A stretch of 64,000 nt of DNA, taken from positions 1 to 64,000 of IMG/VR virus record IMGVR_UViG_3300020576_003639; one strand, written 5' to 3'. The position numbers were made by a program, and so were the translations under genes. The DNA is from a virus. Shown piece by piece: positions 2,087 to 62,932 of the stretch; within the stretch, counting starts at the first letter, position 1; each line of letters opens with the position of its first letter. The notes under the pieces are model-generated. The model made no database searches. It saw only the letters and a program-made list of their open reading frames with translations, and was not told the DNA's origin.

Positions 2087-2087
2087 T

Positions 2088-25088: not shown

Positions 25089-25121
25089 ACTTGTTTTATA
25101 TATTACCTGTTTTTTGTGATT
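25089..25121 (+). terminator. hairpin + T6 (terminator-like) inside the non-coding region
   Basis: caggtaa-cttgttttatatat-tacctg followed by tttttt. Confidence 0.45.
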
Positions 25122-25168
25122 AGTTCAGAGAGTAGGAGAGTATGGTAGGAATCTAGTTATCAGTTCCG

Positions 25169-25196
25169 CCATCCTCCCCGACCACCACCCTAGTCT
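25169..25196 (+). repeat. 28-bp GC-rich direct repeat, copy B
   Basis: Identical to 24366-24393. Confidence 0.8.
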
Positions 25197-25457
25197 ACGC
25201 AGGTTCTCTCAACTAAAACTTTGCTATCCTTTCTCAAAACAACAGAGGTTCATTCTAAAGGAAACTTCCCTTCCGCAAAGGTAAGAGATCTGATGTTATA
25301 AAGTAAGCGGATACGACGGCGTGCGCAGCACAGAACAATGCAACTTGCCTACTTGTCCCCAAGTAGTACAGATCATAAGACGTAAAGTCTTATACAGGAA
25401 AGAGAAAGTTCTTAGCTATTAGTTTCTCGCTAAAGAAACTAATCATTAAATATAATA

Positions 25458-25708
25458 ATAAAAAAACACAAATCAAAAAACAACAAACACCAATATAAAA
25501 AAACAAAAAAACATTTACTTAGTTAATTAATATCAAAAATAACTTGGGACCATAACACTCTAGAGAGAGAACTATATTAATATCTCAGTGTGTATATAAT
25601 AATACTATACCCTATCTATCTATCTATATATATTATTTTTATTTTATTTTATTATTTTTTTAGTTTGTTTTTTGTGTTGTGTTGTTGTTTTGTGTGTTTA
25701 GTGGGGGG
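25458..25708. repeat. strand-asymmetric low-complexity block: A/C-only tract, (CTAT)n microsatellite, T/G-only tract ending in G7
   Basis: aaaaaaacacaaatcaaaaaacaacaaacacc ... ctatctatctatctat ... gtttgttttttgtgttgtgttgttgttttgtgtgtttagtgggggg. Confidence 0.7.
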
Positions 25709-25778
25709 TATATGTGGACCAGTGAGTGTATGATGTAGGTTAGTAGGCAAGTGGTCAACTATTTTTTGGACAATATAC

Positions 25779-26504
25779 CTAAATATACTTCCATTGATAT
25801 CATCAATGGAATTTCCTTTCTCACCTACAACACTTTCTAATAAGAGATCAAGTATATCAATCTCAAACATCATTAGCTCATTCATATATATTTATTAAAA
25901 TTCATTCTTTTGAAAATTTTCCAACACATTTTTTTGGATTATATATTTTTTTAAAATATTTATTTACATTTATTTCATTATCATGGGACCATATATATCA
26001 TCAAAATCTATGAGACTTATATAATCTAGCAAGAAATGATCTTTTTTTAAATAGATTTACAGTAATAACTTCATCAACCGATTTATACTTTTTAATAAAA
26101 TTTCATTCCAATGAATATTGAAATATTGGAGTACACTTTTTAAATGTAATAATACCACATCATCTTGCATGAATAGAATTTTCTTTGGCAGTACACCATT
26201 CTAAGGCCCACCAATAGTTAAATGTTTTAATAGCAGTAATATGATTCACTTGAGTATGAAAAGATTCTTTGAAAAGAAAAGCATTAGCTACAAGTTTATG
26301 TATTCTATATAGTGAATGCTTTCATTTATGCTTAAATGAAACTTGTAGATATCATTTTGGATGAATATGATTAGGTACAAATTTTAAAGTATACATATTC
26401 ATAACTCTACCAAAAGAACTTATCTGATATTTATCATCATAACCCGGAATATCTTTCCAGATCTCTATAGTAAAGAATTGAAATAGTAGAAAGTAGTAAT
26501 TCAT
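25779..26504 (-). CDS. HNH homing endonuclease (NUMOD4 + HNH_3)
   Basis: Minus frame ...IWKDIPGYDDKYQISSFGRV...GYLQVSFKHKGKHSLYRIHKLVANAFLF...VNHITAIKTFNYWWALEWCTAKEN... Nine TGA=Gly. Confidence 0.6.
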
Positions 26505-28126: not shown

Positions 28127-28702
28127 TTAATATTTCCAAATAAATAATCATGCAGTTTTCTGCCCTCATCTTGCACACCTAGAAATTCAAGATCAATGTA
28201 TTCATAAAAATTCTCATGCTTCATAAGCTGATCAGTATGTCTTGATTAGATTTCAATTTAAATCATATTGAGATACATTTTTTGATGTTGGATGATTTGA
28301 TCATTTTTTTCATTCCCAAAATTTTGGATGTTTAGTTTGAAATATATTATTAGCAACTCAATGCTTATATTGATCTAATACATTTGAACTTCTAGTACCA
28401 TATCTCAAGTTATCAGGATGATTATTTTTTGGATTACCATCATTATGACAAACTTCCATTCATTTAGGGCAAGGTCATTCTTTTATAAGCATAACTATTT
28501 GATGAATTCAAAATGATTTTGATAATCAATGTTTATATAATGCAGTTTGCATGTGTCATGATTTTCAAATTCATAATGACATTATTTTAACTTTTCAATT
28601 GTATAAACTTCTGATCTGATTAGTAGAAATTTTTATTTCATAAATCCAATCATATCATGGAATTTTTATCCAAGAATCAACATCTATTGTTTTTCGCTTC
28701 AT
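28127..28702 (-). CDS. HNH homing endonuclease (NUMOD4 + HNH_3)
   Basis: MKRKTIDVDSWIKIPGYDWIYEIKISTNQIRS...GHMQTALYKHG...IHQIVML...EVCHNDGNPKNNHPDNLRYGT...GISRCARGGQKTAGLFIWKY. About 17 TGA=Gly. Confidence 0.65.
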
Positions 28703-31465: not shown

Positions 31466-31540
31466 TGGAGCTACTAGAAAGACTTGAACTTTCACACCAA
31501 GATTTGCAGTCGAGTGCATTAACCTTTCTGCCATAGTAGC
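31466..31540 (-). tRNA. tRNA-like element with a GCA (Cys) anticodon and an imperfect anticodon stem
   Basis: Minus-strand 75 nt: perfect 7-bp acceptor stem gctacta/tagtagc, D-loop with GG, T-arm gaaag-ttcaagt-ctttc, discriminator U + CCA, anticodon loop ctGCAaa. Two mismatches in the anticodon stem. Confidence 0.4.
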
Positions 31541-32598: not shown

Positions 32599-32673
32599 TG
32601 GAGCGAAACGCGGGATTCGAACCCACGATGCCGGATTTGAAATCCAGAGTCTTAACCGCTAAACGAGTTTCGC
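32599..32673 (-). tRNA. tRNA-Gly with UCA anticodon (reads UGA)
   Basis: Minus-strand cloverleaf: acceptor gcgaaac/gtttcgc (G1:C72, C2:G71, G3:C70), discriminator U73 + CCA, T-arm gtggg-ttcgaat-cccgc, anticodon stem ctgga/tccgg with loop ttTCAaa. The Gly identity elements point to Gly and not to Trp or Sec. Confidence 0.75.
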
Positions 32674-32834: not shown

Positions 32835-32910
32835 ATGGTTCGGGAGGTAGGATTCGAACCTACGATCTTTGGATTATGAGACCAATGAGTTGACCACTTC
32901 TCTACTCCCG
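32835..32910 (-). tRNA. tRNA-Met (CAU), initiator-like C1xA72
   Basis: 76 nt: acceptor ccgggag/ctcccga with a C1:A72 mismatch, T-arm gtagg-ttcgaat-cctac, anticodon loop ctCATaa, CCA end. An Ile-lysidine (CAU) identity cannot be excluded. Confidence 0.65.
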
Positions 32911-33077
32911 GAAATAATTATAGTATTTTTATTTTTCACTTAAATCTTTTTTTAACTCAGTTGTCACTTATTCAAAAATGAATTCATGCAGATCATACTG
33001 AATCTTTTCATACGGGGAAATCTAGTATATATGGATTATATTTTATTGATTCTGTTGGTAGTGAGAAAATCATATGA

Positions 33078-34221: not shown

Positions 34222-35055
34222 ATGCTCGATCAAGGTTACGGCATTATGCCAAATTCCATTCTTTTTAATAAAGAACTTTCAGATAAAGAAAAATTACTCT
34301 ATTGTCTGATATCGAGTTTATGTGCAAGTGAATGACATTCATGGGCCACGAATCAATATCTTTGAGAAAAGCTATGATTACATAAAGATAATATTTGAAA
34401 GTATCTATCTAAGATGGCAAAATCATGAATTATATTTCTACAAGATATTAATAATACAAGATATATCACAATATGTAAGATAGACGAAAACGCCTGGGGG
34501 GGTAGGTGAATTCACCTAGGGGGGGTAGACGAAAACACCTACCCTATATATAGGATGAATAGTATAAGTGAAGAAGATAAAGGAAAAGAAGAAACTTCTC
34601 ACATAGAAGAAAAGAATTCAACAGAGAAGTCTACAAAAAAGCTTTCTTCTTCTATACGAAAAGGTTCCAAACCTATCAGAGAAATTATTGTTCCGCCGGA
34701 AAAGCGATACATTGATGAAGTTCTCTGACAGAAACGATGAGTAGATAAGCTTTATGAGATACTTACTCTTCCTACGATGAAAGATTACGATGTTCTTGCA
34801 CTCGATGATAAAGAAGATCCACGATCATTCACGAAGATTATTTCTCTATACGAATGGCTTCTTGCATTCTTCCAGGAGAAATACGATGGAAAAATCTATA
34901 AAGACGATAATGGAAAAATGGTAGGATCAGGAATCATACTCAATGAACTCGATAAATTCATTGCATATTATTCCGAAAAAAAGGATGAAGACATTCTCGA
35001 TATCAAGGCAAGACTTCGAAAATGGGTTACAAATTCTCTCAAGTATGCGCTTTAA
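34222..35055 (+). CDS. phage replisome organizer / DnaD-like replication initiator (N-terminal wHTH)
   Basis: MLDQGYGIMPNSILFNKELSDKEKLLYCLISSLCASEGHSWATNQYLGEKLGLHKDNIGKYLSKMAKSGII matches the organizer N-domain pattern. Frame traced without a stop from 34222 through the G7 palindrome into the ORF starting at 34558. Confidence 0.55.
34481..34544. promoter_or_regulatory. ori-like element: direct iterons TAGACGAAAAC x2 flanking a palindrome cctGGGGGGGTAGGTGAATTCACCTAGGGGGGGtag, inside the replisome-organizer gene
   Basis: Repeats and palindrome read directly from the sequence. Confidence 0.5.
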
Positions 35056-35075: not shown

Positions 35076-36812
35076 ATGGTGGACATATTCAAAGAAATAA
35101 AAAATATAACTCTTACAGAAATCCTTGATAAGCTCTGAATCTTCTATGAAGTCGTATGAAATAATATCGAACTCTACGAAGGCGACAAACATACCGACTG
35201 ATGGCGTTGAGATATCGGATGAGGGTTTATCAAGGATTTTACTTGAAAGCGTGCACAGGGGGATAGAATCACTTTTGTGATGGGCTATCTTGGAATGGAA
35301 AAGGGTGAAGCAGTTCGATGGTTTAAAGATGAATTTCATCTTTATGATGATGGAGAGAAGGTAAATGTACGCCAAGAGATGCTTGCAATCGGTAGAGCTA
35401 CTATGGCAAAAGAGGAAACCGCATTAGCAGTAATAGAACCGAATCATGTTGATGTAAAGGCAAAGTGGGAAACAATGTGAGAACTTTCCCAGATTCAAAT
35501 TGATTATCTTACTTCTCGATCGGTAGATTATTCCAAGGTAAAAAGATATATTCGAAATAATATCTGATATGTTTGCTGTCCTGTTTCAGCGATATCATGA
35601 GCGAGTATCGATATGATCTCACTTCAAAGTCGTGATATTCATACTAAGAAATTCGTTATTGAGAAAGGAACACCAAGTAAATGATGCTTCATTTCTGCAA
35701 TAGATAAATCAAAAAAATATATCTATGTTGTCGAAGGAATGTTTGACTTTCTCACACTTGCACAGTACACAGATAATGTTATCGGTATGAAAAGTGCGAG
35801 TGATGGAGCTGATGTAGTAAAAGAATTTGCTAAGAAATGATATCTTCCGATTCTCATTCCCGATAATGATGAGGCAGGAAAAACTATGCTTACTTTGATG
35901 GCAAATGTCCCACATTCAGTATTCGATTTAGCTGAATACAATGTGAAAGACATCAATGAACTCCTGGTAAAATCAGAATATGGAGCATCTATACTCGAGA
36001 TTATTGAAGATCAGAGAACTCGACCACCACGAAATATCGATTCAGCTATGAAGAAACTTGATTCACTTCAAGCTCTTACTACCAAGCGATGACGACTCGG
36101 AGTTGATGGGCCACCTTCAATGAAGAAGATTACTGATCTGCATCAAGGAATTATTGAAGGGAAAGTATATACAATCTGAGCTTATTCAGGTCATGGAAAA
36201 TCTACACTCAGTTATGAGTATGCTTCATACTTTGTAAAGCAGAGAAAAAAAGTGCTATACTTTTCTGTCGAAGTAGATTCAGGATTACTTCTGAGTTATA
36301 TCGCTCGAAACTTTTACAAAGTTCCTCATAAAAGCATTATGGATCGTCAGCATAAAATCAATGCAAATGATTTTGATACACTTTATCTCTACGACAATGT
36401 TCGTGATCTCGAGACTATGAGTAAAATTGTTATGGAGGAAAAGCCTGATTATGTATTTATCGATTATGCACAGGGAGTTCGATGTGAATGAGCATGAATT
36501 TATGAAAAGACTACAAACTATGCACAGTCTATACAGGCATTGGCTATCGAAAGTAATGCAACTATCTTCTCGCTTTCTCAGCTCAATAACGATTCAAGGA
36601 ATAAAGATGGTGGAGATGTAACCCTTAAAGGATCAGGAGATCTATTCTCTGCAAGTGATGTAATCATTACTATTTCTAAGGATTGAGAATTTACAAAATG
36701 TGGTCTTATGAAAAATAAGTTCTGAAAAAAAGATTCATACTTTATTGAGTTTAATTACGATGTCGGAGGGCTTATGCTTATATCACAATCATATCAAAAA
36801 GATTGAGTTTAG
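35076..36812 (+). CDS. primase-helicase (TOPRIM primase + DnaB/gp4-like helicase)
   Basis: TOPRIM YIYVVEGMFDFLTLAQ and ILIPDNDEAGKTM. Helicase Walker A TIGAYSGHGKST (first Gly = TGA), Walker B VFIDYAQ, H3 SLSQLN, H4 GSGDLFSASDVII. Four track ORFs in one phase joined by TGA. Confidence 0.75.
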
Positions 36813-37657: not shown

Positions 37658-37665
37658 ATATAATC

Positions 37666-37690
37666 CCTACAAACCGTAGGGATTATATCA
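37666..37690 (+). terminator. hairpin terminator
   Basis: tccctac-aaacc-gtaggga followed by ttatatc. Confidence 0.45.
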
Positions 37691-37718: not shown

Positions 37719-40700
37719 ATGGCCAACGATATTACAGCTCCACTAGAAGGTGCTGAAGCTCCTGGATTTTTCTCTCGAGGATGAGCGCTCGATAAAGGTA
37801 TACAATCAGTAGACTCTTTTTTCGAATGAGCAGCCAACATGGTTAAGGATACTACTGTAAAAGTAGTTACTTGACAATTTGATCTCAATCCAATGCTATC
37901 TGATCAGGATAAAGCAAAATATAATGTTCCACAACCGATCAGTGATAATGACCGAGCTCTGGCAAAAGAATCGAAAGCTATATCTGGTTGGCAGATGGCT
38001 AAAGATATTGGATGAGCTTTGATTGATTTTGGAAAAGATAAAATAGTATGAACAAATCTTTCCAGTAAATTGAATCAATGAATATCAGAAGATGACTTCA
38101 ATAAAACGATATCGAAATATCGTTGAGATATATCAAGCACGAATAAAATAATATCCGATATCATGTCCGCAGATCCTAAGTTTGCACAGTATCGTGATTT
38201 TGATTTTGCTTCTTACAAAAAATATCTTGATGCTAGGGGAATTACTTCAGTTCAAGATCCTGCAGATTATGAAGCATTTAAGAAAGCAGAAATGAGTAAG
38301 CTTAATGCTCTTGATCAACAACTCATTGTGTCCCAGTATCAGGAACTTCAGAATACTGTAAGTAAATATCAGCAACAGGCTCAGGCAAAACAAGCTGAAC
38401 TTGATTGATATCTCAACTCTGCAATCAAATGAGACTGAGAAAAAACTGGTGTACAGGTATTTGAGGATGTAGAAAAGGAATCACAGAACAGATTCAAGGA
38501 TAGCCAATACCTACAGTATAACCAAAAGGTAGCTACCTATGTTGACGAGATGGTCACTAAGGAACTCGAGAAAGATGGAAAATCAATATCTGGATTAGGA
38601 CAATCATTCACAAATCTTAAGGACTCTGTTGTGGAACAAATGACTGCATCTGAGATGTATCGTTTGGATCTTATCGGTATGGATGATCTTCCTGATAACG
38701 AAAAGTACGCGCAGATGTGGGGAGAAGCAAGTCAGAAATTCTACAACTTCAATTACGAGTTCATGCGTAGACTTTCTGCAGAGAAAGACAAGCCTGAAAA
38801 TAAATGAGTTGATGAGGTTGCGCTTCGTCAGAGAGTGCAATTAGAAACGTGGAGAGCTACTTCTCCTGAAGATAAAGAAAAGATGCGATGACGAGAAGCA
38901 TTAGCTACTGGAATTAATGCTATGGTAAATGCCAAACAATTGGGAGAACGTATTACTGATCTCAATCCTCAAGCTCTTCTTGATGGGCTATCTCTCGTAG
39001 GTACTACATTTCAATCCTATGTAGACCAAGCATTTGATTATAATCAGGAAATCCCACACTATATTCAGCAGGAGACTAGATCACTTCTTTATTCTGATGA
39101 GGGAAACCTCAGGAAATTTTGATCATATCTATCATACAATGCTGATGCTCTTGCATCGATGGCTATTCCAATAAAGGGAACTGGAATCGTGACTAAGGGG
39201 GTCGATAAGCTTATTGATGTACTCGCAAAGAATACAGATAAATTTGTCGGGATATCTACTAAGGTATGATTTACTCAATGATTTTTGAAGTTTATTCCAA
39301 ATGCAGCGAAGGGTATTTCTAATAGCCTAGTTAATGGAGCAGTAGGTGATCCAGTATTTGATAATCTCATGATGCAAGCGCCTACGGCTGCAGTTGAGAC
39401 AATGAATAATATTGCCAATCTATTCTTTGATGCCAGTCTATTTACTGGAGGTAAGTGACTTGTATACGGTTTAGAATGAACAAAAAATATGAATGGATTA
39501 ATGTTCAAGTTTCTCCACTGAGATGAGGCTGCAGCTGTTAAAGACTGGACTAAAGCATTCAATGATCACTATAATCCTGGACAAGCAATTAGCGAGGCAC
39601 AAGGTCGAGAGATTCTTGAGCAAGGCAAGAAGCTTTATGGTAACATGTATTCACCTCAAGAAATCAAAAAAACCTTCAATGAAAAATGAGGGATTTATCG
39701 TTATCTTGCGGACAATGTTTCCCAGATGACTGACTCTTGAATAAAAGAAGTACTCACTGGTAATGGTCTTGGAATTCGTATTGAGGATCTTGTAGGCATT
39801 CCAAGAAAAGAAATTGATAATCTCAATGGTCTTTTCGATGTTCATGCAAAAGTTTCTAATGATGAGACAAAGACTCGATTAGTATCGACTCGTATAGAAG
39901 AGAAACTCAATGCCATAAATGATTTTGTATCTAAGTGATCCCCTTATGATGATGTTATCATTCAGCAAAAGATGAGAACTAATCCTGAGTTTCTGAAGGA
40001 AGCAAAGGTAGTTGAAATAAAACTCGCTCAGATAAAGAGTCTTATGAAGGTTCCTAATTCTACCGATGAGATCAAGGGTCTTATTGGAGAAGTAGATGAT
40101 AGTATCCGTATGATGAAGGAGAACTATACCAATAGACAGTGGCCAACACAGGTCACGCTTGTAGATAGTGCATCCAAAAATGAAATCAAGATAGGGATAA
40201 AGGATCTCCGAGCAGATCTTGATGGAAAGAATTTCTCTGATATCGTAGCCGAAGGTCGTGTTACAATCAAGAAAGATACCAAAAATATCAAGCAATGAGA
40301 CTATTTCATCAAAGGAGCTGAGAACAATGTCTTTTCTTCTTATGTGGAAAGTTTCATGAAAAACATCGAGAATGATATTTCTGAGTTTGAAATAGCAAAT
40401 AATCTCGATCCTCTTACGGACAAGATTCGTCATTCTATTCAGAATGGTCTTCTCAATACTGGTAAGGTAGAGTTCTGATACCTTGCTAAATTTACCGGGG
40501 AGCAATATGATACTCAGATAAAGGCTCTTTGAGAATTCGTTAATAAGACTCTCAAGAATTTCTATGGTGAAAAATTTGTTAATCCTGAAGTACATTTTCT
40601 TGGAAAACAGCTTGTTAGTAATGAAGATGTAATAAAGGGATTCAATAATAATCCTGGATACATCAATCTCACATATGGTACATTTGCTAAGACAGATGAT

Positions 40701-43700
40701 GTTACAAAGATTACTGGTACAAAAAATATATTCTATGTATCTTTTGGAAAAGATATTGCTTCATCTGAAGTATTTGCCAAAAAACTCGATGGGAATCCTA
40801 AAGGAACATGAGCTACCGTTACTGCATATATCGCAAGCGCATCAAGTATCAACAAGCTTATTGTGAAATATGGCATTCAATCGGATTGATCTATTGATTT
40901 TTTCAAAGGGTTACAGAAGGCAAAGATTGTAGAATCTACAGCTAATGTAGATGGACTATTTATCGATTGAAAAATATCTCAATCAGCTATTGCAAAAATA
41001 CTTGATGATGCTATCAAGTGAGAAGATATGGATGATCTTACTAGAAAATGAATTCTTGACCTTGCTAATGGTCTATTCTCGGCATCAAGGCAAGAGGACT
41101 CTATGGTAATTAAGCCAATGATATATTCTCTAGTATCAAAATACTATGATAATAAGCCACTTATTGACGAGTTATTCACAAGATTCAGAATAGATAAGCC
41201 AGACTTCATCAAGGCATTTGCTGATATATTGATGAGTCCTGATACGTATAAAGACATTGCAGCGAAGATGGCATCTCGATGAGATCAAAAAGTTCTTACG
41301 GAATCATTCAGAGTAAAACATCAGCAAGCTTGGCTCGAGTATCATAATAGGCTTCAGTCTATTGTGGATAAACTTGATATCCAGATTGATGATGCTAAAG
41401 CCACGCGTAAGCTCACTGGATCAGCTGAGGCTCGAGAATTTATCGACATGAATATTGAAACTCTCAAGTCCAAAAAGTCTTCAGTACTCAAGGTAATGAA
41501 GAAAGAACAGGAGTTCAAGAATAATCTTCTCGAGAAAAATCTCCAAAATATCAATGTGGAATACTTGAAAAATATCTCTAATGATTTTTCTTTTACGAAA
41601 CTTCTTCGTAGAGAAAACCTAATAGGCAAAGGAAATCCAGAAGACCAACTCAAACAATATGTCTCAATGCGAGAACAGATCAAAGATCTCTATCCAAAGC
41701 ATAGAGATGTCTTTGATAGTCTCATTAGAGATATTGAGAAAGTCACTGATCCTATGGCTACTATGGCCGATCGTGCTAATCTTATCCAGAAATATGAGGA
41801 TATGGCGTTCTCATCTGATATTCTGAAGGATACCGTAGACAAGATGATTAGGCAGTATCTGTTTCCCCAGGATGGTATTTCTCTATACGATGTATCATAT
41901 CTCAGTAATATGATTGATTCGATGAAGGGAAAATACACTTATAATTTTGCCAAAGAAAATAACCCACTCAAGAAATGGTTATGAGGATGGATCAATAATA
42001 CGAACACCGGTCGTAATGATGTACTCGAGGCAAAGATCTCTGAGTATTTCAAAGAACCAACAGTCAAATCTGCTGATGAGATGTATGATAAGAATCCAGA
42101 GTTCAGAGATATGATTGATAGCCTTCGAGCTCAATCATCTTCAGAATGAGATGTAGATGTTCCAAAAGTCTATGTTAAGGCTATTCGTGATGGAAAAGAA
42201 TCTGTTCGAAAATTTATCTCTGAGATATTTCATAACATCGAGATAGATACCGATAGTCGTTGAAATATTAGCGCTGAGCTAGTGGATGACATATTAAATG
42301 AGTATGACATCATCAAGAAGCTTAAAGCCATCGCAAATCGCAAATTATCGAAGAATGATATCAATGTGTCGCTCATAGAGTGAGAAACAGAATTCGATAA
42401 GGTATTTTCAATCCGCAATGATAAGTACAATGAGAAGGTTCTTCAGATAGAAAACATGGAGAAAGCATGAATGAACTTCAGAGCTATCCGTGGATTTTCT
42501 GTAAACCAAGCATGATATATTAAAATTGGGGATACTACTCTCAACAAACTCTACGACCAGCATATAGTAGATTCTTTCATCAAAGATAAAGAGAATCCAA
42601 ATTTTGCTTACTCTACATCTTCAGAGAAGTATAAGCTTCTTACTAAGATTATAAATAATACCTTATCTGCTGAAGATTATAAAATATTAAATATTCAATG
42701 ATGAAAAGAGACAGTATCGTTAAATAAAATTAAAAATTTAATTGCTAAAAATGATAAGGAATTACTTACTAAGTATTTATCATTATCAAATAAAAAGTCA
42801 GACTCAATTGAATGAATCGTAGATTATATATCTTCTGATCTTAGATCTTGGATATTTGATTGAGATTGAACACTTAAAGAAAATATAAAAGCTAATTTAT
42901 CTGAAAAACAAATAGAGCAAAATTATAATACTTTTAAATCAAATTATTGAGAATGAAATAAGGATTTATTTGATTTTGAAGTATCTCTTATTAAGAAAAT
43001 ATATGAGAATATTGATTCTATAATTCAAGTAGAATGATCAGTTATTGATCGGAAATCAATTATTTCTCAGCTTGGAATCCCTGAGGATCATGTATTCGTA
43101 GGAAACTTTGGTGATAAAGATTCTCTCTACACTACTTACAAATCTGGTCTTGATATCTATACTGGTAAGGTTATTCCGGAAATAGAGGCATCCATCTACA
43201 AATATGAGTATGCTTTTGCTAATGGATATACTACTGGTAAGATGGAAAGTTTTGAACAATTCAAAAACAAGTTTCTTACAAAAAAGTTCTCTTCGTTCGA
43301 AGAATATAAGAACTATATGCATGATAATGTTTATGAAACTGTCAATGGAAAACGAGTGAACCAGTATATTCTTCCTCGTGATACTATCCGTAAGAGAGAG
43401 GCATTCAACATGAGTAACGATACTACTTTCGAGGATTATGTTGTGCCTACAAAGACTTATATCATCGAGAAGGAACTCAAGCAAATACCAGAACTCCAAA
43501 ATTTCCCTATGGTAAATGGAGAGTTTGATGGTGGAATAGATGATCTCATGAAACTTATCTCCGACTATCCTGAAAGTGAGGTAGCTACAGTTGTCCAAAA
43601 GAATTTGGATAACAATGTCTCAGTAGAGAAGATTATAAACTTTCTGAACACGACCTACAACAATGATCTTCAGGATGGTACTTCATTCGTATCCAATGAT

Positions 43701-46700
43701 CTCGCGAGAACTCGTGCATTTATACAGTGAGGGAACCGTGGGGTAAAAGATTTTGATGAAGGAAAACGACAATTCAAGGATCATTACTATGGAGATCTCT
43801 GAAACAAAAGATTTTGAGCAAAGACTTTGTTCAATGCTTCAGATATTCAGTTTGAATGAGCTCCTATCAAAAATGCTGTAGTCGTTGGTGATTCATCAAT
43901 GAAGCTCAAGGGTGGATACAAGAAGTATGATGAGCCGAAGGAGATCATGATCGATGGCAAGATGCATAAAGTTCTCGGGGAAGTGGAAGGAACCAATACT
44001 TCATTCTTCAAGAATGCAGCAAGTGATTCATTCAAAGACCATTCAGATCTCACGATGAGTGATTCTATCAAGGGTAGGATACCTGTAGAGCACGCAAAGG
44101 CTATTGAGCAACTTCAGATCCGTGATATAAAGCTCGCATTCCAGGAGGCCCTTTGAAGTCTTTCTGACTATAAGATATCTCTGAATTCCTTTGGAGATGT
44201 TACGGAACTTATCAAACTTATCAGTTCAGAGGCTAAGATTGGTATGGGTGCTGATGCAATAGTGAAGGGGAAGATGACAGATCTTCTCGTCAAGATTGAC
44301 GGTATTATCAACAAGCCAAAGAATCCAGGACAATCTATGTTCATCCGAGAATCGAATCTCGATATCGGTCGAAATGAAGTTATCATGAGTAAGGACTCGA
44401 GTTTCGTTATTCAGGCTCGTAAGGAAATTCAGGATGAGATCGATAAGCTCGATCCAAATACTGATGTAGAGAAGATCGCAGAGCTCAAGAAAGACATGAA
44501 GGATGGTCTATACACGGTAGGATACCGATATCCGGTTCCATCTATCTACAATCTTGGAGTATATAAGATCCGTATCCAAGAAGATCTTGATCCAAAAATA
44601 TTTGGACAGTACAAGAACATGGGTAAGGATCAGGTTATTACACATCCACTCACCACGTATATGAAGCTCGAGGGAGATAATGACGGTGACCACGTCTTCT
44701 TCTTATCTGCGAGATGAGAGATGGGTAAGATACTTTCCAATGCTGTTCTTTGAAAAAAACCAACAGAAGAAATCATTCCTATCCTCAAGTCAGGAAACTG
44801 GGATAATAAGTTTATCGTGGCAGAACAGGTTGAGAAGGGCATAGTCAATGACTCTGAGGATGTATCTCTCCTCGATTCTCGATCGATAGCACTTGAGGCA
44901 AAGGCTTCTATCGGTGTAGTATCGGCTACTCTACGTACTCTCGGTACACTGAGTCAGATGATGTGAGATTCGCTGAATGATGATAAGAAACTATTTTTCC
45001 AGGAGATTATTCCTTCTGAATCTGGGAAGGCAAAATCTTCTAATAGTGTGAAGACTCTCAAATTTATCAAGGATAAGATCGGTGACCTATCTTCAATAAA
45101 GAACAATCCAGAATTTGATGCACTTGCTGCATCGATTCTTCAGACAACTCTCGACTTTGGTAACTCAGGAAAGACAACATTTGACAAGGATTGGTATATG
45201 GATCTTTTGGAAAAGGTATGAATACCTCGAGAAAAGATTCCTGATATATACTACTCTATCATCTCCCCATTATCTATTGGGTACAATAAGACTGACATCA
45301 AACAAGGATACAAGCTTTGACTTGCTACGTTTGCACCTTCGTATAAAAAAGATCTCCTCTATTGAGTTACTGGTTCAAAAAGAGATATCTATGAGTTTCT
45401 TCTTGAGGGAGAAGTGTACAATAAGCGATCGATAGCTCAATTTGTAAATGATGTGAACAAGACTCATGATCTCAAATTCATCACAGATACATTGATGTCA
45501 TCATCAAAGGATATCAATGTGAAAGCAATTATCGATTATATGAATAAAGAGATCAAGAACTTCTCTACTCTTGGTTATATCAAGAAAGAGTACCGTGGTG
45601 ATTTCAAAAAATTCATAGGATCTCTTGGACATTCAGATCAGGTTCTGGAAACAATGAAAATGATAGATGACTATCATGAGATCCAAGATAACTACCTGGC
45701 AAAGAAAGAAATCAGTAAGAATCTTATTTCAAAAGTAAATAGTTTGAGCCCTGATGAGCGTGCTATAGCTGCACTATATGGTGCAGCTAATGGGGAAAGT
45801 AATCTATTCAATTACTTCACTACTCCTGAGAAACTTCTTTATCTCACGTCATCTGATCAGACATTTGTAAAAGATATAGGATCAGTATATGGAATAAAAC
45901 TTCCAAAAGATTCTCTTGATTATTGATCATTTAAAGATGAGATCATAAAAAATATATCAGATCTTACTAATGATCTGAAGTGAGAAAAGGATGAGTGAGC
46001 AATAGATGCAATCGAGTATAATCTCGAGAAACAGAAAGCAGCACTCAGCGATATCGATCAGCTTATTACAGATCTCGAGGCTAAGAAGGATATTCCTGAT
46101 GACATTGTGATAGATGAAGTCAAGATCCCAGAAGTATGAGAAGTCGTGTTTCCAGAGTTCACATTTGCAGAACTCGATACATCTCCACAATCCGCTAATG
46201 AAATTCTTTCAGAGCATGTCGATATGGTAACGCTCGCTAGAGATTGATGGAAGCTCACTATGCAAAGCATGTTCAATAAGTATAGTCCTCGATTGGCTCT
46301 CAATTTTGATACATTGGCAGACTTCCTCAATGCCAAGAATAGGGTTCTATCGAATGCTAGTAACGAACATGTCCGTCAGTTCGGTGATCTATTCTTTGGA
46401 TACAAAAATTCTATATACCGACAACTCAAGAAAGCATGAGTTCCTAAAGAGAAGCTCGATCGTTTAGGTCTTGTTATTCAACACTCTCTGATTGGTAATG
46501 CTGGTGGAGTATTCCATTGAATGGAACAGGATGTAATCATCAAGAAGCTTACTGGTACTCTCGAGGAATATGGTGTAGGTCATCTTATCAATGATCCAAA
46601 ATTTATGGATGAGATCTTTGACTACAATGATAAGGTAATATCTGTAGCAGTAGAGAAGCTTAATCAGATTCAAGAATCATTTCACTTCGATATCTACAAT

Positions 46701-49700
46701 TCGTATAAGGATCTCGATCTCTCTATGATCACAGATCTCTTCGAGGCTCATAAGTGAGATGCACAGTTTGCCCTTAAGCTCACTGGTATTAAAGATCGAC
46801 AAGCATTCGAGAAATACATAATGGATAATGCAGCACAGATGGGGGAAAAACCATTGGAAGCAACAGTCAGATCAATGGGGAATGCGGTATATAAGAATCA
46901 TAGTGGTATGGACTTCGTATTGAACTTTGTGAAATGAGTTCATTACGAGATGACATATGGAACCGCAGCAACATTACTCACTCAGAATAATATAGTTGCC
47001 GGCCTTACTCAGATTCTTCCAAATTATACAGAGCTCCGATCGTTTATTGATAAAGATCCTTCTGCTATACGAGAATGACTTTATGTAATGTCGAGATATA
47101 ATCTCCTCGACGCTGAAGATGTACTGCAAATGGGTACATGATTCTGAAAGAATATGAAGAATACTTGGCTCGGATGAGTAATCCAGAAAGCAACGAAAGA
47201 TCTCACAGAGGGAACACTATCTGCAGTTTGAGTTACGAAGAATAAAGCTATACGAGCATCAGAGTTCGTTGATTCCGTAATGAACAATATGCTTGGATTC
47301 AATGACTGGCCGCTTGAGAATCTTCGTAAGATAGTCGCTACCAAGAAAGCAATGGATCAGCTATGATATAAAACTGCGAAAGAACTAGAGGATGCAATAG
47401 AAAGAGGGTGATTAGATTTTGAGATGGCATTCAGATCACATGTAAGAAGAAACTTTGCCAATACTGGATGATGAGTAGTGTCATCTTCCCCAATTGCGTC
47501 AGGAACAGTATTCGAAAATTCATATGAATACTTGAGAACAGGAATAGTCCCAGTAGACTTCTTCGTAGAATTTGGTGTGAAGTCCCTCTGATATCTTATG
47601 TGATGGTCATTTCATAAGTCGGCTACTCTCTTAGAGAAAGAATCAGCATTATTCACATGATTAAAGAAGCTTGTCATAGACAAAGATCCTAGAGCATTCA
47701 AGGCACACTTCAGTGATTGGGCTGCATATAACCTCATGTTGGGAAGACAGGTAGGAACAACAATGGGTCTCTATCTTAAATTCCAGAAATATGAGAAAGA
47801 TAATGATGATCGTATATCTTTGGCATCATTTCAGAAACAGTTCAATAATGCTTTTGTAGCAATACTAATTCCTCTCGAACGACATTTCGCAGCATTCGAA
47901 ACTGCTGAAAAACTTGGGACTGGATCAGATGCAACCCTCTATACCATGAATAGTGTCTTCAAACAGATGACTCGTCTATTCAAACAATGAGCGTTCTTCA
48001 ATACAATGTTTGATCGTTATAGGGAGAAAGAGGCATTAGGTGAAGCAGATATGCTTGATGCAATGCAATATGCAATGGATGTTCATTATACTGCATATAT
48101 GAGATTCTCTGGGATGCAGACTACCAATGATTATTATAACACCCTTGGACAGCAAACTAATCTTGGAATCTTATGAGTAGGTGGTAATACACTTCAAGAT
48201 GATATTGCAAAAGAATTGATGGAATGAAGTACCTTTACATCTTGGAAAGAAAAATGATTCATCTGAAGTCTTCTATCAGGATTCAGTCAAATGTTTAGGA
48301 CATCGGATACAGATCTCTCAATGAGCGTAGCACAGGATCTTGCAAAAGAGATTCGTGATAGAGTCACTCGTGATCCACAGTTATCAAAACTTCTTAAAGG
48401 ATGACAGATTGGTACTGGAATACAGGACTATAATATCACTAATCTTGTAGGAAATAACAAGATAATGTCTCCTGAGGAAGAATGAGCTACATCAGATATA
48501 TGGAAAGAAATTCAGTACTATGCCTATAAGAGCATCGATAAAGATGGAAAGCTTAAGGTGTACGGATCTGATGGAAAACTTATTGTCCAGGACAAGATTC
48601 AACAGATTCTCGAAGAGAGAATCACCAAGGAGCTGGCAAAGAAATGAATCAATATTTCTGATATCATTGCTAGATGACCTGGTTACGATCCAGCTCTTTT
48701 GAAAACTATTGCAGTACTAGGTCTTGATTCAGAGCTTAAGACTCCGCTAGTGATTGCAACTCTTATGGAAATGGAGAATAAGAAGCTCAATGCAGATAGA
48801 AAGAAGACGGAGTGAGTTCTCACCGGTGAGAAGTCGGCATATGGAACTCCATATAAAACTCTTACAACAGAACAGTATATCCGATCTCAGCGAGATATTA
48901 TTCTGAAGTACCAAGAATACTTCAATCTTGATAATAATCTAGTGCAGTCCATCATAGAGAAACACATTGCCAAGAATAATGTTGATCTTTTCGAGAAGTT
49001 CGATAAGGTGACAAATCTTAAATTTATCAAGAACGATGTATACGATCTGGTGAAGAGAGAGTATCTAGCTAGAAGTGTTATGAATAACTGAGATACGAAG
49101 GTTTCATCACTTCAGAGTAGATACGCTCTTGCATATAAGGGAATAAAAGATTCAGAGACATGAGTACAAGTTGTACTTAATCATCTCAGAGAAATTGAAT
49201 CGCTTCCTGCTATGGATGCTAAGACGAAGCTCGCGAATCAAGCAGCAGCTCTTATGAGCCTTAATACAACTCAATACGGATTACTCAAGAATAATAAAGA
49301 GTTTGCTAAACTTACGGAAGATTCTCAGAAGCAAATTACCAATTGGTTATTCAAAGTATCATCAGCAAGTCTTGATTTTGATAGCAATACAATGGCATCA
49401 AAAATGAATCAGGCTGCATGATCTCGTCAGGCCACTGGTAAATGATATGCAAGAGTTCTTCCTAAGCCTCAAAGCTCATCATTCTCATGACAGAGACCAA
49501 ACTTTTCTCAGCAGTTTTCTCCTATTAGAGATTTCATTCCTGGAAAGGAGAAATATCTTTCTTCTGATCCGAATAGATTTCTACAGGCAAAACAAGATTT
49601 TATTCCTCGGAATAATCTCTTTAATCCTGCGCAATTCCCAATCGTTCAGGAGTATGCAAAAATTATGATTAGTAACATATACTACGGTTATGAATCAAAA

Positions 49701-49877
49701 GGAACTATTCGCACTGGTTCTTGAGATAAAAAGTTTGATAAAACTCAGAATACGAGTATAAAGATAGCGAAACCAAAGAAAGCCAAAGCCACAAAAGAAT
49801 TTAAAAAATTCAAGATAGCTCCAAAAGTATCTATGTGAATGCGGCCGGATCTTCCACTCGCTAACTATTGAGACTAA
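37719..49877 (+). CDS. giant protein (about 4052 aa) with a multisubunit-RNAP beta-prime-like DPBB catalytic domain (DxDGD). Candidate crAss-like virion RNA polymerase / giant virion protein.
   Basis: Twelve track ORFs all in phase 0. The gap 39122-39972 was verified codon by codon: nine TGA and no TAA/TAG. Frame-0 stops are at 37701 (TAA) and 49875 (TAA). The region near 44520-44700 reads YRYPVPSIYNLGVYKIRIQ...GKDQVITHPLTTYMKLEGDNDGDHVFF. This parallels beta-prime NRAPTLHRLGIQAF...[26 protein letters not shown]. Confidence 0.7.
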
Positions 49878-50221
49878 TGTCAGAACAATTCAACGATTCA
49901 TTCGAAATAGTCTCCGCTGAGGAGAAACAAAAACAACTAGCTGCGTTATGAGTTCCTCATGACACAGCTAAGTTTGTGGTTAAGCTTCAACAAAGACTTA
50001 TGAAAATGAATGTAAATGAGGATTTTATTGTTGATAAGATTATTGATCTTCTTGACACTACTATCACAACAAATTCATGAGAAACGTATAAGGATGGGAA
50101 GACAAATCTTGAAGCATTAAAATTAGTGCTTCAGATTCTTGGAATGAAATGATTAGGTAATACCACAAATATTGCCTTCTTTTCAGGTACACCTGTTAAT
50201 AATTGAAAACTAGAATATTAA
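49877..50221 (+). CDS. small protein upstream of terminase (terminase small subunit candidate)
   Basis: 114 aa. The call rests on position only. Confidence 0.3.
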
Positions 50222-55413: not shown

Positions 55414-56751
55414 ATGGCTGATGCTGTTGGTACTACTGGTACCGTGGACTGAGTCCTAAATGTCGTTACATCTAAGGGAATCCAAACAATCAACGCTTGG
55501 ATCCGCGATTTTCCTGCCCTCATGTATGTTGGTATGAATCTTCAAAACATGTTCAAAGATGGAGGAACTCTCAAACGAGGTGGTCTTTCATTCGCTGATC
55601 AGCAATCTCTTAAGTTTAAGAATATCGGTTCTCTTGAAGCTGATATGTCAGTAACTAAGAATGAAGTAAAATGGTACGAAGTTGGAGCATTCGCTGATAG
55701 CGCGCTCATTACTGAGGCTAATGCATCTGCAGATACTACTGTTAAGGTAGCACTCGCTGATCTTGATATCTTCAATGTTGGTGACGTTGTTGCTATTCGT
55801 GCTAAGTCAGGAGGTACAACTCCTAATGCTCAAGCAGAAATTTCTTCTATCAATACTAGTACTGGACAGATTACTCTCGATACTGCAGTTGTTACTGCTG
55901 TCGGTGATTCAATCATGTTTGCTTACAACCTTATTACTCATAAGGCTGAAATCGATCGTACTGTAAATGGTACAAATCAAACTCCTGTTACTACTTACTT
56001 CCAAAAGTTTGGTGGTTCAGTTGAATTCGATTCTCAGGATCTCAATGTTACTCGTCTTCTTACAGACGCACAGGAGTATGTTAAGGGTAAATTTGCTGTT
56101 ACGATTAATCTCGCCAACAACACATTCGCTCGAACATTCTACCTTGGTCGTAATATTTCAGGTACTAAGAGTGAGACTCAGGGTCTTGATGCACTCATTA
56201 CTGAGAAGGCAGTTCGTGATGGATCTGCAAATGTAATCATTGACTTTACTGGTGTGACTGTTGCTAAGGATAAGGCTAAACTTCTTGTTAGGACTCTTAA
56301 CGAAGCTTCTTCTGCTCCTGTCTATGTTGGTGGTGAAGTTCCTACAGTTTACTGTAACTACGCATTCATCGATGCTCTCTCTGAGATCCTCTATGATATG
56401 GGTAACTTCTATACTCTTAAGGATAAGGAAATCGAATTTGGGCTTACTCAATATTCTTCTCCTTACTTCAAGAATGTACAGTTCATTGTTGATACTGTCC
56501 TCAATAATCTTGAGCAATATCAGTCAGTTGCTTACGTCTTCCCTAAGCATCTCGTTACATTCAAGACTCCTGAGTACCAATCAGTAAATGAATCTGGTGC
56601 GCTCGTTAAGTCTTCAATGGGTGGATATACAGTTCTTAAGATGCCTCAAACATCTGTAGACTTCGTTAAGTATACTGCACAAATGACTATGGCCAATGTT
56701 TTCGCAGGTCAAACATTCAAGAATACTTATAAAAAGATCATCGGATTCTAG
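55414..56751 (+). CDS. major capsid protein
   Basis: 445 aa after scaffold. Only one TGA, at codon 13. Strong terminator downstream. Confidence 0.6.
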
Positions 56752-57504: not shown

Positions 57505-58101
57505 ATGAGCATTACCTACGCACAAATGCAAACTCTCGTAAAGCCATACTTCCTTTCTCGAGGATGAGATGATCTTTGTAATCCTGATAGATTAATGTTT
57601 TATACAAATTCATCTATTCAAGATATTTATAATTTTGATGGAATGTCAGAACGATATATTACCGAGACAATCACTTCTTATGTTGATGAAGGGATTTATC
57701 GTAAATTTGTTTCTACTTATCCTATAGACAAAATGGAAGAAGCATTTGATCAAAATGGATCAGAGCTTAGTCCTACACTTTATATTCCTTGTGCTTGTGA
57801 ACTCAAGTTCCAGGGAAAGAATATTTTTACATCTCAGGATGTAGAAAGTATATCATGTACTTATATCAAGCTTTATGAATGGGCTCAATGGCCTTTAGAT
57901 AAAGATGCTATTATTCCTTTATCAGATAAATACATTCCTGCTCTTACAAAATTTATTTATGATTGGGCTGCACCGATAAATCTTATGGCAGGAGAGTCAG
58001 CTACATTTGACTTTTTCTCTCATGGTATGAATCGTCTTACTACCATTTCTAATAATGATGGTATCACGAATACTTTTAATGTTAAACCTGCAAGAAAATA
58101 A
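57505..58101 (+). CDS. structural protein (head-tail connector/completion candidate)
   Basis: 198 aa. Position only. Confidence 0.35.
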
Positions 58102-59906
58102 TGGATAAATTACCTTTCATGCTTGAAGTCGGTACTCTTAATCAGACATATAATAAGATTAAGAACTGTCGAGTAGTAAAGCCATCTTATGAACTTGATG
58201 GTTCATACAGTACAGAATTCTTCTTAGATAAAAGATTCGGACTCGAGTCTTATTTTGCTGATGCAACTAAGAAGTTTCTTGATTATATTGATGTAAAAAG
58301 CATTAGATACTACTTATATAAAGAAGGATCAAAACATTACATTGGTACTTATGATGGATCATCATTCCATGTAATTACTACTGGATGATTTACAGTAGAT
58401 GCTAACTCCCCAGTTAGACTCGCTACATGAAGGGGGGGGTATGGATCAAGCAAAGGCGTAGGAACTATTGATACAGGCATTGCCCTCGAACAAGATACAT
58501 GATCAACCTTCACTGAACTCCCTGGATATACAGGGGGGTATGTTAAATTTCATTATACTGGATGAGGAACTCCTGTAGCCTGAGATTATATTACTTTCAA
58601 AGATTGAGTTCTCAAAGGAGGAACAAACAAAATTATGAAAGTTGCAGCAGGATATATCTATATCATAGGAACAAATGCTCGTGGATCATTGCCTATGGTA
58701 TGAAATACTTTCGAGGTCTTTTCTTCTATATGAACAACTCTATTACTTGGCCATACTACTTGAGTATCTATGGCAGTATTAAATGGTCATAATGAAGCAA
58801 AGCTTATTAATGTACTTACTACTACTGAGTCAATTATTGATGTACTCAATTTTGATGGAAGTATATTTGCAATGACAGAGACTCATGTCTATTTTTCTCG
58901 AGCGAAGTTTGATGATAATACTCAGTTCTATCCTCTTGATAATTTCCCAGTTGATGGGGGCTACAAGCTTTTTCCAATAGGGAAGGCTATGTTGGTATTC
59001 GGAAGACAGAATAAACTCATAGCAGCGGCAAATGCTACTGGTACGACCATAGGATATGTGATGTACGATGCCAACTATAATGGCGATCTCTATTCAAAGT
59101 ATTCATTCATCTTCGCTGATCAGACTATCTATATGCTTCAGGCTGATAAACAGTTGATGCAAGTAGATCTTGTTCAGAATAATAATACGAGCTTCAATGT
59201 ATCGGTAAAAAATATTCTCACTCAGAATCGTGGGAAGTTTGAAGATCTTTCAGGAGGAGAAGTATTCATTAATATATCTGATCGGTATATTAATTTTCTT
59301 TGGGTTAATGGTGCTGATACTACAAATATTCAGTATGATAAACAATATACTCATTGGATTGAAAATGTATATGTAGGAAAAAAAATATATTCATTTGGAT
59401 CATGAGCAGGAGTTCTTACTGATGGAGCTATCTTCTCTGAAGGAGGATATCTTGATGGCCTTGTAGAATACGCTCAAGAAATAAACTTCTCTATCAATGG
59501 TAATGATCAGATATTTATGCCATACACAGTAAGAACATTATTCTGAATGCTTCCTAACTGGCTTATAGATGTAGCGGAACCAAAATGGATATTTGATATT
59601 GATCTTGAGATAAGTCTCGATCTTGGAGCTAAAATGAAATCAATCAAGAAATCATTGAAGAACTTCAAATTTGATTCAAGACTTGAATCAGTCGCTACAG
59701 GTGATGAGCTTATCTGATTTGATTGAGCTCTCAACGAATGAATCGAATATAATGGTAACATTGCCTCTATTCAAAGTAATATACAGAAAACTTGAAGATA
59801 TACTTATTTTAAATATACTTCTATTAATAGATTCATTATAGGACATAGCTATGTCTTTACTGAAAAAACTAAACCATTTATTAATGAAATGGATCTTAAC
59901 AATTAA
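58101..59906 (+). CDS. tail protein (601 aa; Gly-rich segments encoded largely by TGA)
   Basis: ORFs 58101 and 58770 are in phase. Sequence includes GRGGYGSSKGVGTIDTG...YTGGYVKFHYTGGGTPVAGDY... Confidence 0.5.
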
Positions 59907-59917
59907 TTTTTACTTTT

Positions 59918-61396
59918 ATGTCTAATAATAATGATATATCATTTTGGGATTGAACAAAATATGCCTGAGAACTTATTGCTAATGCAGGTATCTGAGTTTG
60001 AAAATGAGTAGTAGATCTTGCTGATCTATGATGAGATGTCTTAGCATTTTGAACTGATCTTGCTACTAATGCAGCTGCAGATCTAACTGGAAAAGACTGG
60101 CTTAGAACATCATTATCTGCTAATGAATGACTTATGGATATGACATGAGATCATTTAAATAAATGATTTGATCAAATGAAAGATGCAGTAAGAACAAAAA
60201 TTTGAGAAACAAAAGGTTGAAAGTTTTGAGCTGAAGCAGCATGATTTGTTTGAGAACTATTTGCTCCTGCATGAATAATTAATAAATGAGGTAAAGCTAT
60301 CTCTAACTGAGTTGAATGAACTAAAATACTTGTTGGTGAATTAAAGAAAATTCCATGAGCATTTGAAGAAGTTAAAAAATTAATGAGCTCATGAAAAAAA
60401 GCTAGTGATCCTGAAGTTATGCAGCTTATTTCTAAATATGTTCCAACTGAAAGATTCCAAAGAATTCAAGATTATTTGATTTGAAAAGCTGATGATGTCA
60501 TTGATTTTCAATGACTTCCTAAAAATCTTTCATGAGATCAATTATCTGTTATGCAGAATGCTGCTGAAAATTTAAAGAACTGAAAACTTGCTACAGAAGT
60601 AGATTGATTTTTACAACTTCCTCAAGATGTTCAAAAATATATACTTAAAGAAAATGGTGCAATTTCTAGTGTTGCATGAAAAGCAGATGAAGCTACATCA
60701 TCATTTATAAAATGAGGTAAAACTCCTGAAGAATTTAAAGCAGGAAGAGCTGCAAGAATGGAAGAAAGTTCAACAGATAATATGTTTGATTTTCCAAAAT
60801 GAAAAACTGCAGAAGAGTTTACTGCATGAAGGGCAAAGTCATTGCAAGATATTGAAAATGCTTCAGAGGAAGTTCTTACTGATCCTGAATCATTAAACGC
60901 TATTGAAAAATGAAAATCAATTTTATCAAGATATTCACCACAGGCATTAAAGGAGCTATTAGATAAATATCCAAAACTTAAAACATGATCTAAACTTGCT
61001 TTAGCAATTTGATTAAATCATGTTGCAGAGATCTCAAATGAAGATGCTCCAATTGATTCTGGAATAACATTACCTAAAGCTGATGCTAATAATAATAGTA
61101 ATATTAAAAATGATTCTAAAACGGAAGAGCCTAAAACAATTTCAGATAAAAAGAAAGAACTTGAAATCATGAAAGAAAAAAATGCAGGAACACTTAATGC
61201 AAGTACTTCAGTAGTTGATCTTATGAAAATGTTATGAGCAAATTCCACTATGGAAGCTCGTAAGATGTTATATGAAAAGATCACTTCAAAACCATATGAA
61301 GGTACTGCTGAACAAAATATACAACTTAAAGATCTTGTAGAAGAGATGTTTGCAAAATGAACTTTAAGTGATGCAATACAACCTATTAAACGATAA
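59918..61396 (+). CDS. tape-measure-like / tail protein (492 aa; about 36 TGA=Gly)
   Basis: AGIGVGKGVVDLADLGGDVLAFGTDLATNAAADLTGKDW... GxxxG-rich N-terminus, helical Lys/Glu-rich remainder. Confidence 0.45.
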
Positions 61397-61407
61397 CCTT
61401 TCTTTCT

Positions 61408-62931: not shown

Positions 62932-62932
62932 T

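Follow-up and report, generated by a model that had tools for sequence, protein, structure and literature searches.

To our knowledge, single-chain two-barrel RNA polymerases (RNAPs) are known in giant phage proteins from only a few lineages, those of the crAss-like phages, the Thermus P23-45-like phages and SPbeta (YonO), each found by spotting a bare DxDxD motif. The virion RNAP of N4 is a T7-like right-hand polymerase, not a two-barrel one. In crAss-like RNAPs, including gp66, the motif reads DFD[I/V]D throughout, with Ile or Val at position 4 (10.1101/2020.03.07.982082). Giant phage proteins known to contain a polymerase core, namely gp66, P23-45 gp96 and the N4 virion RNAP, all belong to the virion. 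Described here is a gene in a 64,000-nucleotide stretch of viral DNA (positions 1 to 64,000 of IMG/VR virus record IMGVR_UViG_3300020576_003639; hereafter the window) that encodes a protein of 4052 residues, the core of which is very probably, judging from a predicted structure, a two-barrel RNAP (Table 1).

The gene occupies a single frame from an ATG to a TAA at 49875–49877, comprising 4052 sense codons and the stop, and contains 94 in-frame TGA codons, no TAG and no TAA other than the terminal one. The remaining five frames of the interval carry 66–234 TAA or TAG codons apiece, and if TAA and TAG were as frequent as in the neighbouring frame, 4052 open codons would arise by chance with a probability of ~1e-60. 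A standard-code finder of open reading frames (ORFs) cuts the gene into pieces, with 12 of the 17 plus-strand ORFs of at least 60 aa in the interval sharing its frame. The first-pass annotation, made from the letters and their ORFs, had noticed twelve fragments in one phase and proposed a single giant protein in genetic code 25; both proposals stand. Full-length homologues from two other phage lineages, L001 (4138 codons) and L003 (4084 codons), are TGA-readthrough ORFs colinear with the whole giant ORF at 31–39% identity, and their 29 and 15 TGA codons lie at positions unlike those of the window gene. Because it is colinear with ORFs whose TGA codons sit elsewhere, the giant ORF is one gene and not a row of adjacent genes.

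Opposite TGA in a three-way alignment with these two homologues, Gly occurs 78 times and Trp not once. With TGA read as Gly the giant protein contains 6.9% Gly, and with TGA read as Trp it contains 2.8% Trp. All other complete ORFs called in the window stop at TAA or TAG, the single 'TGA' tallied being an ORF cut by the window end, and 39% of the glycine codons of the whole window are TGA. Judged from sequence, TGA is glycine here, that is, the phage uses code 25.

Three tRNAs are encoded in the window, Cys(GCA), Met(CAT) and one with the anticodon UCA; the other two lie at 31466–31540 (−) and 32836–32911 (−). ARAGORN labels the UCA tRNA 'SeC', yet it fits the general tRNA model and its acceptor stem is tRNA-Gly-like, with G1-C72, C2-G71, G3-C70 and U73 read from the sequence, which are the acceptor identity elements of E. 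coli tRNA-Gly. This is a candidate phage-borne tRNA-Gly(UCA) supporting code 25, and its anticodon would pair with the 94 UGA codons in the giant gene.

Use of the recoded codon is uneven across the window, the TGA share of Gly codons per gene ranging from 0.03 up to 0.85–0.94. The lowest share (0.03) is found in the 445-aa ORF 55414–56751, presumed by position to encode the capsid protein, and in a 353-aa protein (4645–5706); the highest are found in several small ORFs (3969–4547, 12141–12641 and 28127–28702) whose sequences, inspected by eye, resemble endonucleases. TGA may thus be avoided in a way linked to expression, the genes may be of mosaic origin, or both may apply.

An exhaustive search with a hidden Markov model (HMM), covering 1.84 billion protein representatives, recovered 38 relatives, of which 12 are full-length (3811–4461 aa), and in every one of these 12 the homologous core lies near the middle of the protein. 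As called, all 12 contain 3–7% Trp and 0.4–3.9% Gly, and therefore TGA has been mistranslated as Trp by gene callers; all 12 come from TGA-recoded genomes. Owing to this miscalling, database copies show the catalytic motif as 'EWDNDWDH'. The shorter matches are TGA-bounded standard-code fragments or equally Trp-rich code-4 calls, and no standard-code family member was seen among the 38. Three relatives (P0003, P0004 and P0007) show 7% 'Trp' and 0.3–0.4% Gly as called, so that nearly every glycine codon in them must be TGA, an extreme reliance on the reassigned codon. A protein search with the motif core region returned two fragments only, whose contigs are loci L001 and L003, and a word-indexed protein search with the family profile returned nothing beyond the query itself. 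A DNA pattern allowing TGA or GGN matched 2 contigs of viruses and 6 from metagenomes, and none among the GTDB genomes. The family was previously unannotated and has been seen so far only in TGA-recoded phages; the literature searches made found no description of it, which is not proof of absence.

Conservation along the giant protein peaks at aa 1750–2500, 3000–3450 and 3800–3950, with the core as the most conserved part, and the ~3400 residues outside the core keep their length and order across the family. In an alignment of 15 full-length sequences (the window protein, L001, L003 and the 12 database proteins), in which identity falls to 20%, D1986, G1987, K2020, H2022, K2035 and K2062 are invariant, as are R2270, P2272, P2274, N2278, G2280, Y2282, P2310 and K2316 in the region of the second barrel, the three aspartates D2320, D2322 and D2324, and K2395 and R2406 on a long helix downstream. 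The signatures R-x-P-x-P and N-L-G-x-Y, with P2310, K2316 and the three Asp, are thus unchanged across sequences 20–39% identical; they lie in YRYPVPSIYNLGVYKIRI (aa 2269–2286, nt 44523–44576), which starts YRYPVPS, and ITHPLTTYMKLEGDNDGDHVFFLS (aa 2307–2330, nt 44637–44708). The catalytic motif itself varies among DNDGD, DHDGD, DFDGD and DFDAD, position 4 being G or A. The second conserved block, in the C-terminal third, has no Pfam or PHROG match.

The structure was predicted for P0002, a TGA-free homologue 34% identical to the window protein, and not for the window protein itself. A 1183-aa construct with a three-lineage alignment gave an unusable model, with a predicted local distance difference test score (pLDDT) of 48, and was superseded by a trimmed construct of 601 P0002 residues with a 31-row alignment that includes the window protein's own fragments. 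The resulting model (pLDDT 77.9, predicted template-modelling score 0.80) runs from a strand-rich barrel through long connector helices to a second barrel, and on to a 41-residue helix and a helix-loop-helix. The second barrel is formed by six strands, two short helices and an inserted helix, and DNDGD occupies the loop preceding its last strand. K2020, H2022, K2035 and K2062 are within the first barrel, with D1986 and G1987 just upstream of it, and the three invariant lysines fall on strands of this barrel in the model. The earlier proposal that the DNDGD segment at nt 44676–44690 belongs to a double-psi β-barrel (DPBB) is borne out by the predicted structure, and the second DPBB with conserved Lys residues, for which a search had been advised, has a counterpart in a barrel with invariant lysines ~230–330 residues upstream. 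In the model the core has the two DPBB domains that form the active centre throughout the two-barrel superfamily; the DxDxD (D2320, D2322 and D2324) lies in the beta-prime-like barrel, and the core resembles that of the crAss-like virion RNAP. With element boundaries for gp66 taken from 10.1101/2020.03.07.982082, the helix at aa 2384–2424 resembles by eye the gp66 bridge helix (aa 1529–1559), and ASILQTTLDFGNSGKTTFDKDW resembles, likewise by eye, gp66 1598–1636, SAFLNAFVDNAKD.

Foldseek comparison of the core model with the PDB places QDE-1 in the first nine positions, followed by RDR2 and Pol II, IV and V. Among the predicted viral structures of BFVD, the best matches are parts of giant proteins encoded by uncultured phages and by crAss-like phages, with E-values of 6e-8 to 1e-3 and TM scores up to 0.47. 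The best structural match and most of the others are DNA-dependent RNAPs. The core of the giant protein is, on the predicted fold and its motifs, very probably a two-barrel RNA polymerase, and that it would synthesize RNA is rated nearly as high. No other DxDxD protein that could be a second polymerase is encoded in the window.

Sequence searches against known families found nothing. Pfam and PHROGs gave only noise (E >0.1) for the full giant protein, none of the Pfam families of RNA polymerases matching at the level of sequence, and Pfam found nothing common to the 12 full-length relatives, with a lineage-specific DUF7831 in one member. Neither phmmer nor the 31-row family profile matched any PDB sequence at E up to 10, and tblastn of the core against GenBank phages gave no match. 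Alignment of the family profile by hhalign was not significant against gp66 (probability 0.2%), P74-26 gp62 or the N-terminus of the P74-26 tape measure; in the top, non-significant segment against the P74-26 tape-measure RNAP, DNDGD is aligned with the catalytic DFDGD.

Table 1 Features of the giant gene and its surroundings. Positions are those of the window; residues are numbered on the giant protein unless stated.
Feature	Position	Strand	Details
Giant gene	37719–49877	+	94 TGA read as Gly; predicted 456 kDa, pI 5.8; 19% of the window
Conserved polymerase core (predicted)	43578–45302	+	aa 1954–2528; corresponds to modelled P0002 aa 410–1010
First barrel, beta-subunit-like 'DPBB-B' (predicted)	43680–44015	+	aa 1988–2099; strand-rich in the model
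Helical connector between the barrels (predicted)	44085–44312	+	aa 2123–2198; model helices 178–253, partly low confidence
Second barrel, beta-prime-like 'DPBB-A' (predicted)	44334–44708	+	aa 2206–2330; model pLDDT mostly >90
DNDGD, predicted Mg2+-binding triad D2320/D2322/D2324	44676–44690	+	triad invariant in 15/15 full-length sequences
Bridge-helix-like 41-residue helix DSRSIALEAKASIGVVSATLRTL	44868–44990	+	aa 2384–2424; model helix 460–500; invariant K2395 and R2406
Putative trigger-loop-like helix-loop-helix ASILQTTLDFGNSGKTTFDKDW	45129–45194	+	aa 2471–2492; conserved LQxxLDFGxS
Second conserved block	47298–47804	+	C-terminal third; FNDWPLENLRK, GGGVVSSSPIASGT, YLMGWSFHK, YLKFQKYEKDN; peaks aa 3200–3400
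Conserved C-terminal motif RPNFSQQFSPIRD	49494–49532	+	conservation in the alignment
Perfect 13-bp hairpin	37658–37688		intergenic, separating the giant gene from the one before it; 30 nt upstream of the ATG
TAATG overlap	49875–49879	+	giant-gene stop overlaps the start of a 114-aa ORF (49877–50221) that abuts TerL
Large terminase (TerL), 687 aa	50223–52286	+	first identifiable gene of the downstream packaging/head module
tRNA, anticodon UCA	32599–32673	−	ARAGORN; fits the general tRNA model of Rfam

The explanation that best accounts for these observations as a whole, to which we assign a probability of about 0.6, is a single code-25 protein with a two-barrel RNAP core that is delivered with the virion. 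A 4052-residue chain of 456 kDa would be made with TGA as glycine, and its central ~575 residues (aa 1954–2528) would form a single-chain two-barrel DNA-dependent RNAP module consisting, in order, of a beta-like barrel with the invariant lysines, a connector, a beta-prime-like barrel, a bridge helix and a trigger-loop-like element, with the loop D2320-x-D2322-G-D2324 binding the catalytic Mg2+. The protein would be made late, together with the terminase, portal and capsid, packaged in the capsid as an internal or ejected protein, and would enter the host along with the DNA. There the module would carry out transcription of the first phage genes independently of the host polymerase. No recognizable domain was found in the ~1950 residues on the N-terminal side or the ~1520 on the C-terminal side, which may function in packaging or ejection, in handling the template or promoter, or in auto-inhibition. 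Packaging and a role in early transcription, taken on their own, are somewhat favoured; they are argued by analogy from precedent (gp66, P23-45 gp96 and the N4 virion RNAP), the ~3400 extra conserved residues and the position of the gene, which is preceded by a strong hairpin and whose stop overlaps an ORF leading to TerL, portal and capsid on the same strand.

Several points weigh against this explanation. No sequence-based method (Pfam, PHROGs, PDB searches, or hhalign with gp66, gp62 and gp96) ties the giant protein to any polymerase; the assignment leans on motifs and on the predicted structure of a 34%-identical homologue, and the E-values of the core model against the PDB are weak, the best being 6e-3. 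The correspondence between the invariant lysines and those that act in catalysis in the beta subunit is putative, ~85% of the protein is left without explanation, and packaging is argued from gene order, size and precedent, with the portal weakly identified and the capsid placed by position. The second-best structural match is, moreover, a non-virion phage RNAP. The non-packaged enzymes that serve for comparison are P23-45 gp64 and its P74-26 counterpart gp62, the non-virion RNAPs of PhiKZ and AR9, and YonO. The main rival is a phage RNAP made in the infected cell, not packaged, and transcribing middle or late genes; the other alternatives are less likely. We regard it as unlikely, since the matched non-virion two-barrel RNAPs of phages have ~360–640 residues and not 4000, the additional ~3400 residues keep the same length and order in all family members, and the gene heads the packaging/head string, away from the replication and recombination genes of the left arm.

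That the core performs other chemistry, either RNA-dependent RNA synthesis as in QDE-1, priming, or DNA synthesis like that of PolD DP2, is improbable given that DNA-dependent RNAPs are the best and most of the other structural matches and that the model has bridge-helix-like and trigger-loop-like elements as in transcribing enzymes. No DNA polymerase was recognized in the window, where many of the phage proteins remain unannotated; one may be present among these or be supplied by the host. A structural or ejection protein, tape-measure-like or part of an internal core, that retains an inactive relic of the polymerase fold would fit the 85% of the chain without polymerase features, and fusion of a core of this kind to a tape measure is known from P23-45. 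This is very improbable, as the three Asp and ~15 other core residues are invariant down to 20% identity, the core is the part of the protein conserved best, and the transmembrane segments and peptidase domain typical of tape measures are missing. The many pieces produced by standard-code gene callers are also what would be seen if some TGA codons were stops dividing several genes, or if the ORF were an assembly artefact. Either reading is scarcely credible beside the open run of 4052 codons (P ~1e-60), TGA positions that vary among homologues and align with Gly, full-length colinear ORFs in independent assemblies from different samples, and the TAA or TAG end of every other complete window ORF.

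Upstream of the giant gene are a replication initiator (34222–35055), a primase-helicase (35076–36812) and a 263-aa protein of unknown function, followed by the hairpin (dG −17.4 kcal/mol, z −6.2), which also has a terminator-like match on the minus strand. The hairpin may terminate the replication operon, mark an operon boundary, or have a regulatory or promoter function. Downstream, the only GenBank phage proteins that tblastn matches to TerL are large terminases annotated in the Thermus phages G20c, P74-26 and P23-45 (23% identity, E 4e-6), and the sequence shows GKT and VDEA motifs; the match hints at a distant link between the window phage and the Thermus-phage lineages. These sole GenBank relatives are phages known for two-barrel virion and non-virion RNAPs. 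After TerL come a 671-aa protein with a sub-threshold SU10_portal match, an acidic 244-aa protein and the 445-aa presumed capsid protein, for which no match was found. Of the TerS/TerL-portal-capsid module proposed by the first-pass annotation, TerL is thus secured by tblastn and the portal weakly indicated by its sub-threshold match, TerS and capsid being positional guesses. The order giant gene, TerL, portal is kept in four relatives (L001, L003, L012 and L014).

The left part of the window encodes a fibre-like protein, an endolysin, an exonuclease, a Dda-like helicase, RusA, an anti-restriction protein and an amidase. At the window start (614–3166) the endolysin is accompanied by a Gly/Ser-rich fibre-like protein, and structural genes run off the window end (58101–64000). 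The relatives are on contigs of 64.9–66.6 kb, so the window is probably near a whole genome; taken with the genes at its two ends, this also suggests a short tail module.

Two short repeats precede genes in the left arm. The 16-mer GCCTACAAATACTGAT occurs in four exact copies and one near copy, against 0.5 expected by chance, at 4569, 11278, 16625, 23179 and 23432 (+) in the replication/recombination region, each 67–93 nt upstream of a plus-strand start codon; it is a candidate phage-specific promoter and was not found in the examined parts of related loci. A second element, TTAATCATATTCTTATG, at 9392, 18807, 21526, 22845 and 23257 (+), runs up to and includes the start codon in several small genes; it has 9 matches if 3 mismatches are allowed, against 1.5 expected, and may be conserved as a leader or for translation initiation. 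Where genes switch from the plus to the minus strand there is an AT-rich, ORF-free stretch of ~1.2 kb (24612–25779). A GC-rich 35-nt repeat, AGATCCACCATCCTCCCCGACCACCACCCTAGTCT, is present at 24359–24393, just outside this stretch within ORF 24193–24612, and at 25162–25196, inside it; the two copies are 94% identical and 803 nt apart. The stretch has no Rfam match and may be an origin or regulatory region.

Because of code 25, the host is probably a member of the Absconditabacteria or Gracilibacteria; most predicted phages of Absconditabacteria are reported to share this code (PMC10746230). Tentatively, and a little short of even odds, the window protein may be regarded as the founding member of an undescribed family of ~4000-residue single-chain two-barrel RNAPs, occurring only in TGA=Gly phages of candidate-phyla-radiation bacteria (Absconditabacteria and Gracilibacteria), packaged in the capsid and injected for host-independent early transcription, with the ~3400 further residues as an ejection and regulation apparatus. 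What would be new is a sequence-orphan family of giant single-chain two-barrel RNAPs, so far confined to code-25 phages, that adds a lineage without sequence similarity to the others and is nearly twice the size of gp66. Most of the probable hosts have not been cultured, and knowledge of the biology of their phages is very limited; self-supplied transcription may be one element of how phages infect these hosts with their reduced genomes. Gene calling with the standard code or code 4 conceals or garbles genes of this kind, replacing Gly with Trp even inside the catalytic motif. The polymerase core is a compact construct amenable to biochemistry. A canonical Gly-containing catalytic loop alongside a gp66-like core bears on the relationship between phage RNAPs and QDE-1/RDR enzymes. 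If the assignment is correct, the core would be intermediate in structure among gp66 of the crAss-like phages, the RNAPs of the Thermus phages and QDE-1 of eukaryotes, and would provide a new deep branch for the debate on a phage origin of RNA-silencing polymerases.

Among known systems, gp66 of the crAss-like Cellulophaga phage phi14:2 (PDB 6VR4) is a virion RNAP of 2180 aa, compared with 4052 aa here. By eye the two proteins share GYRxP, K-x-x-G-x-DxDxD and the bridge-helix and trigger-loop patterns (IGYRIP...TKTGSDFDIDKMYVML in gp66, VGYRYP...MKLEGDNDGDHVFFLS in the window protein). The parallel to gp66-type RNAPs drawn by the first-pass annotation therefore survives for the two-barrel core in the predicted structure, and fails at the level of sequence, where there is no similarity to gp66 or any PHROG. 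The description of DxDGD as a gp66-type motif was mistaken: gp66 and all crAss-like RNAPs carry DFD[I/V]D, whereas position 4 in the window family is G or A, the Gly being of the cellular, QDE-1 and P23-45 type. Nor did the proposed crAss-like identity of the phage find support, since TerL matches only Thermus P23-45-like phages and the capsid matches nothing; the hallmark Crassvirales TerL, portal and capsid were not found in the window phage. The position just upstream of the terminase, likened at the time to that in crAss-like phages, differs from that of the phi14:2 RNAP gene, which lies among other giant structural genes. The TerL is unlike that of Crassvirales, the genetic code differs and the host phylum presumably differs as well. 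Because the DFD[I/V]D rule is broken, no sequence homology to gp66 is detectable (PHROGs, hhalign, or tblastn against GenBank phages) and the phage backbone is different, the window protein is not a member of the crAss-like gp66 family.

In P23-45 gp96 and P74-26 gp95, the virion RNAP fused to a tape measure, the polymerase is N-terminal, whereas here it is central; gp96 also has transmembrane and metallopeptidase domains and is encoded in the tail module, whereas the window gene precedes the terminase. PDB entries for this group (gp96/gp95, and the non-virion gp64/gp62) are 8H2M and 8F5M. The giant protein contains no hydrophobic segment that reaches the usual transmembrane threshold and no peptidase domain (Pfam). 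A tape-measure-fused RNAP of the P23-45 type was rejected on account of the central core, the missing transmembrane and peptidase domains and the gene position, and a tape-measure or membrane protein on account of the same missing segments and domain. QDE-1 and the RDR enzymes (PDB 2J7N and 7Y7P) are eukaryotic, dimeric, ~1400 aa long, RNA-templated in vivo and without phage context, and in the largest subunits of multisubunit RNAPs (bacterial beta-prime, Rpb1, RPA1, archaeal RpoA and poxvirus rpo147) the two barrels belong to different subunits. Neither an N4-like nor a T7-like polymerase is among the listed structural matches of the core. The N4-like virion RNAP of Schitoviridae is reported to be a giant protein of ~3500 aa with a central catalytic module that is packaged in the capsid and ejected (PMC13434306); the window protein would, as proposed, follow the same life-cycle logic. 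The predicted order of core elements is that of crAss-like gp66 and QDE-1, and a weak terminase link together with the structural match to gp62 points to some relationship with the Thermus P23-45-like group.

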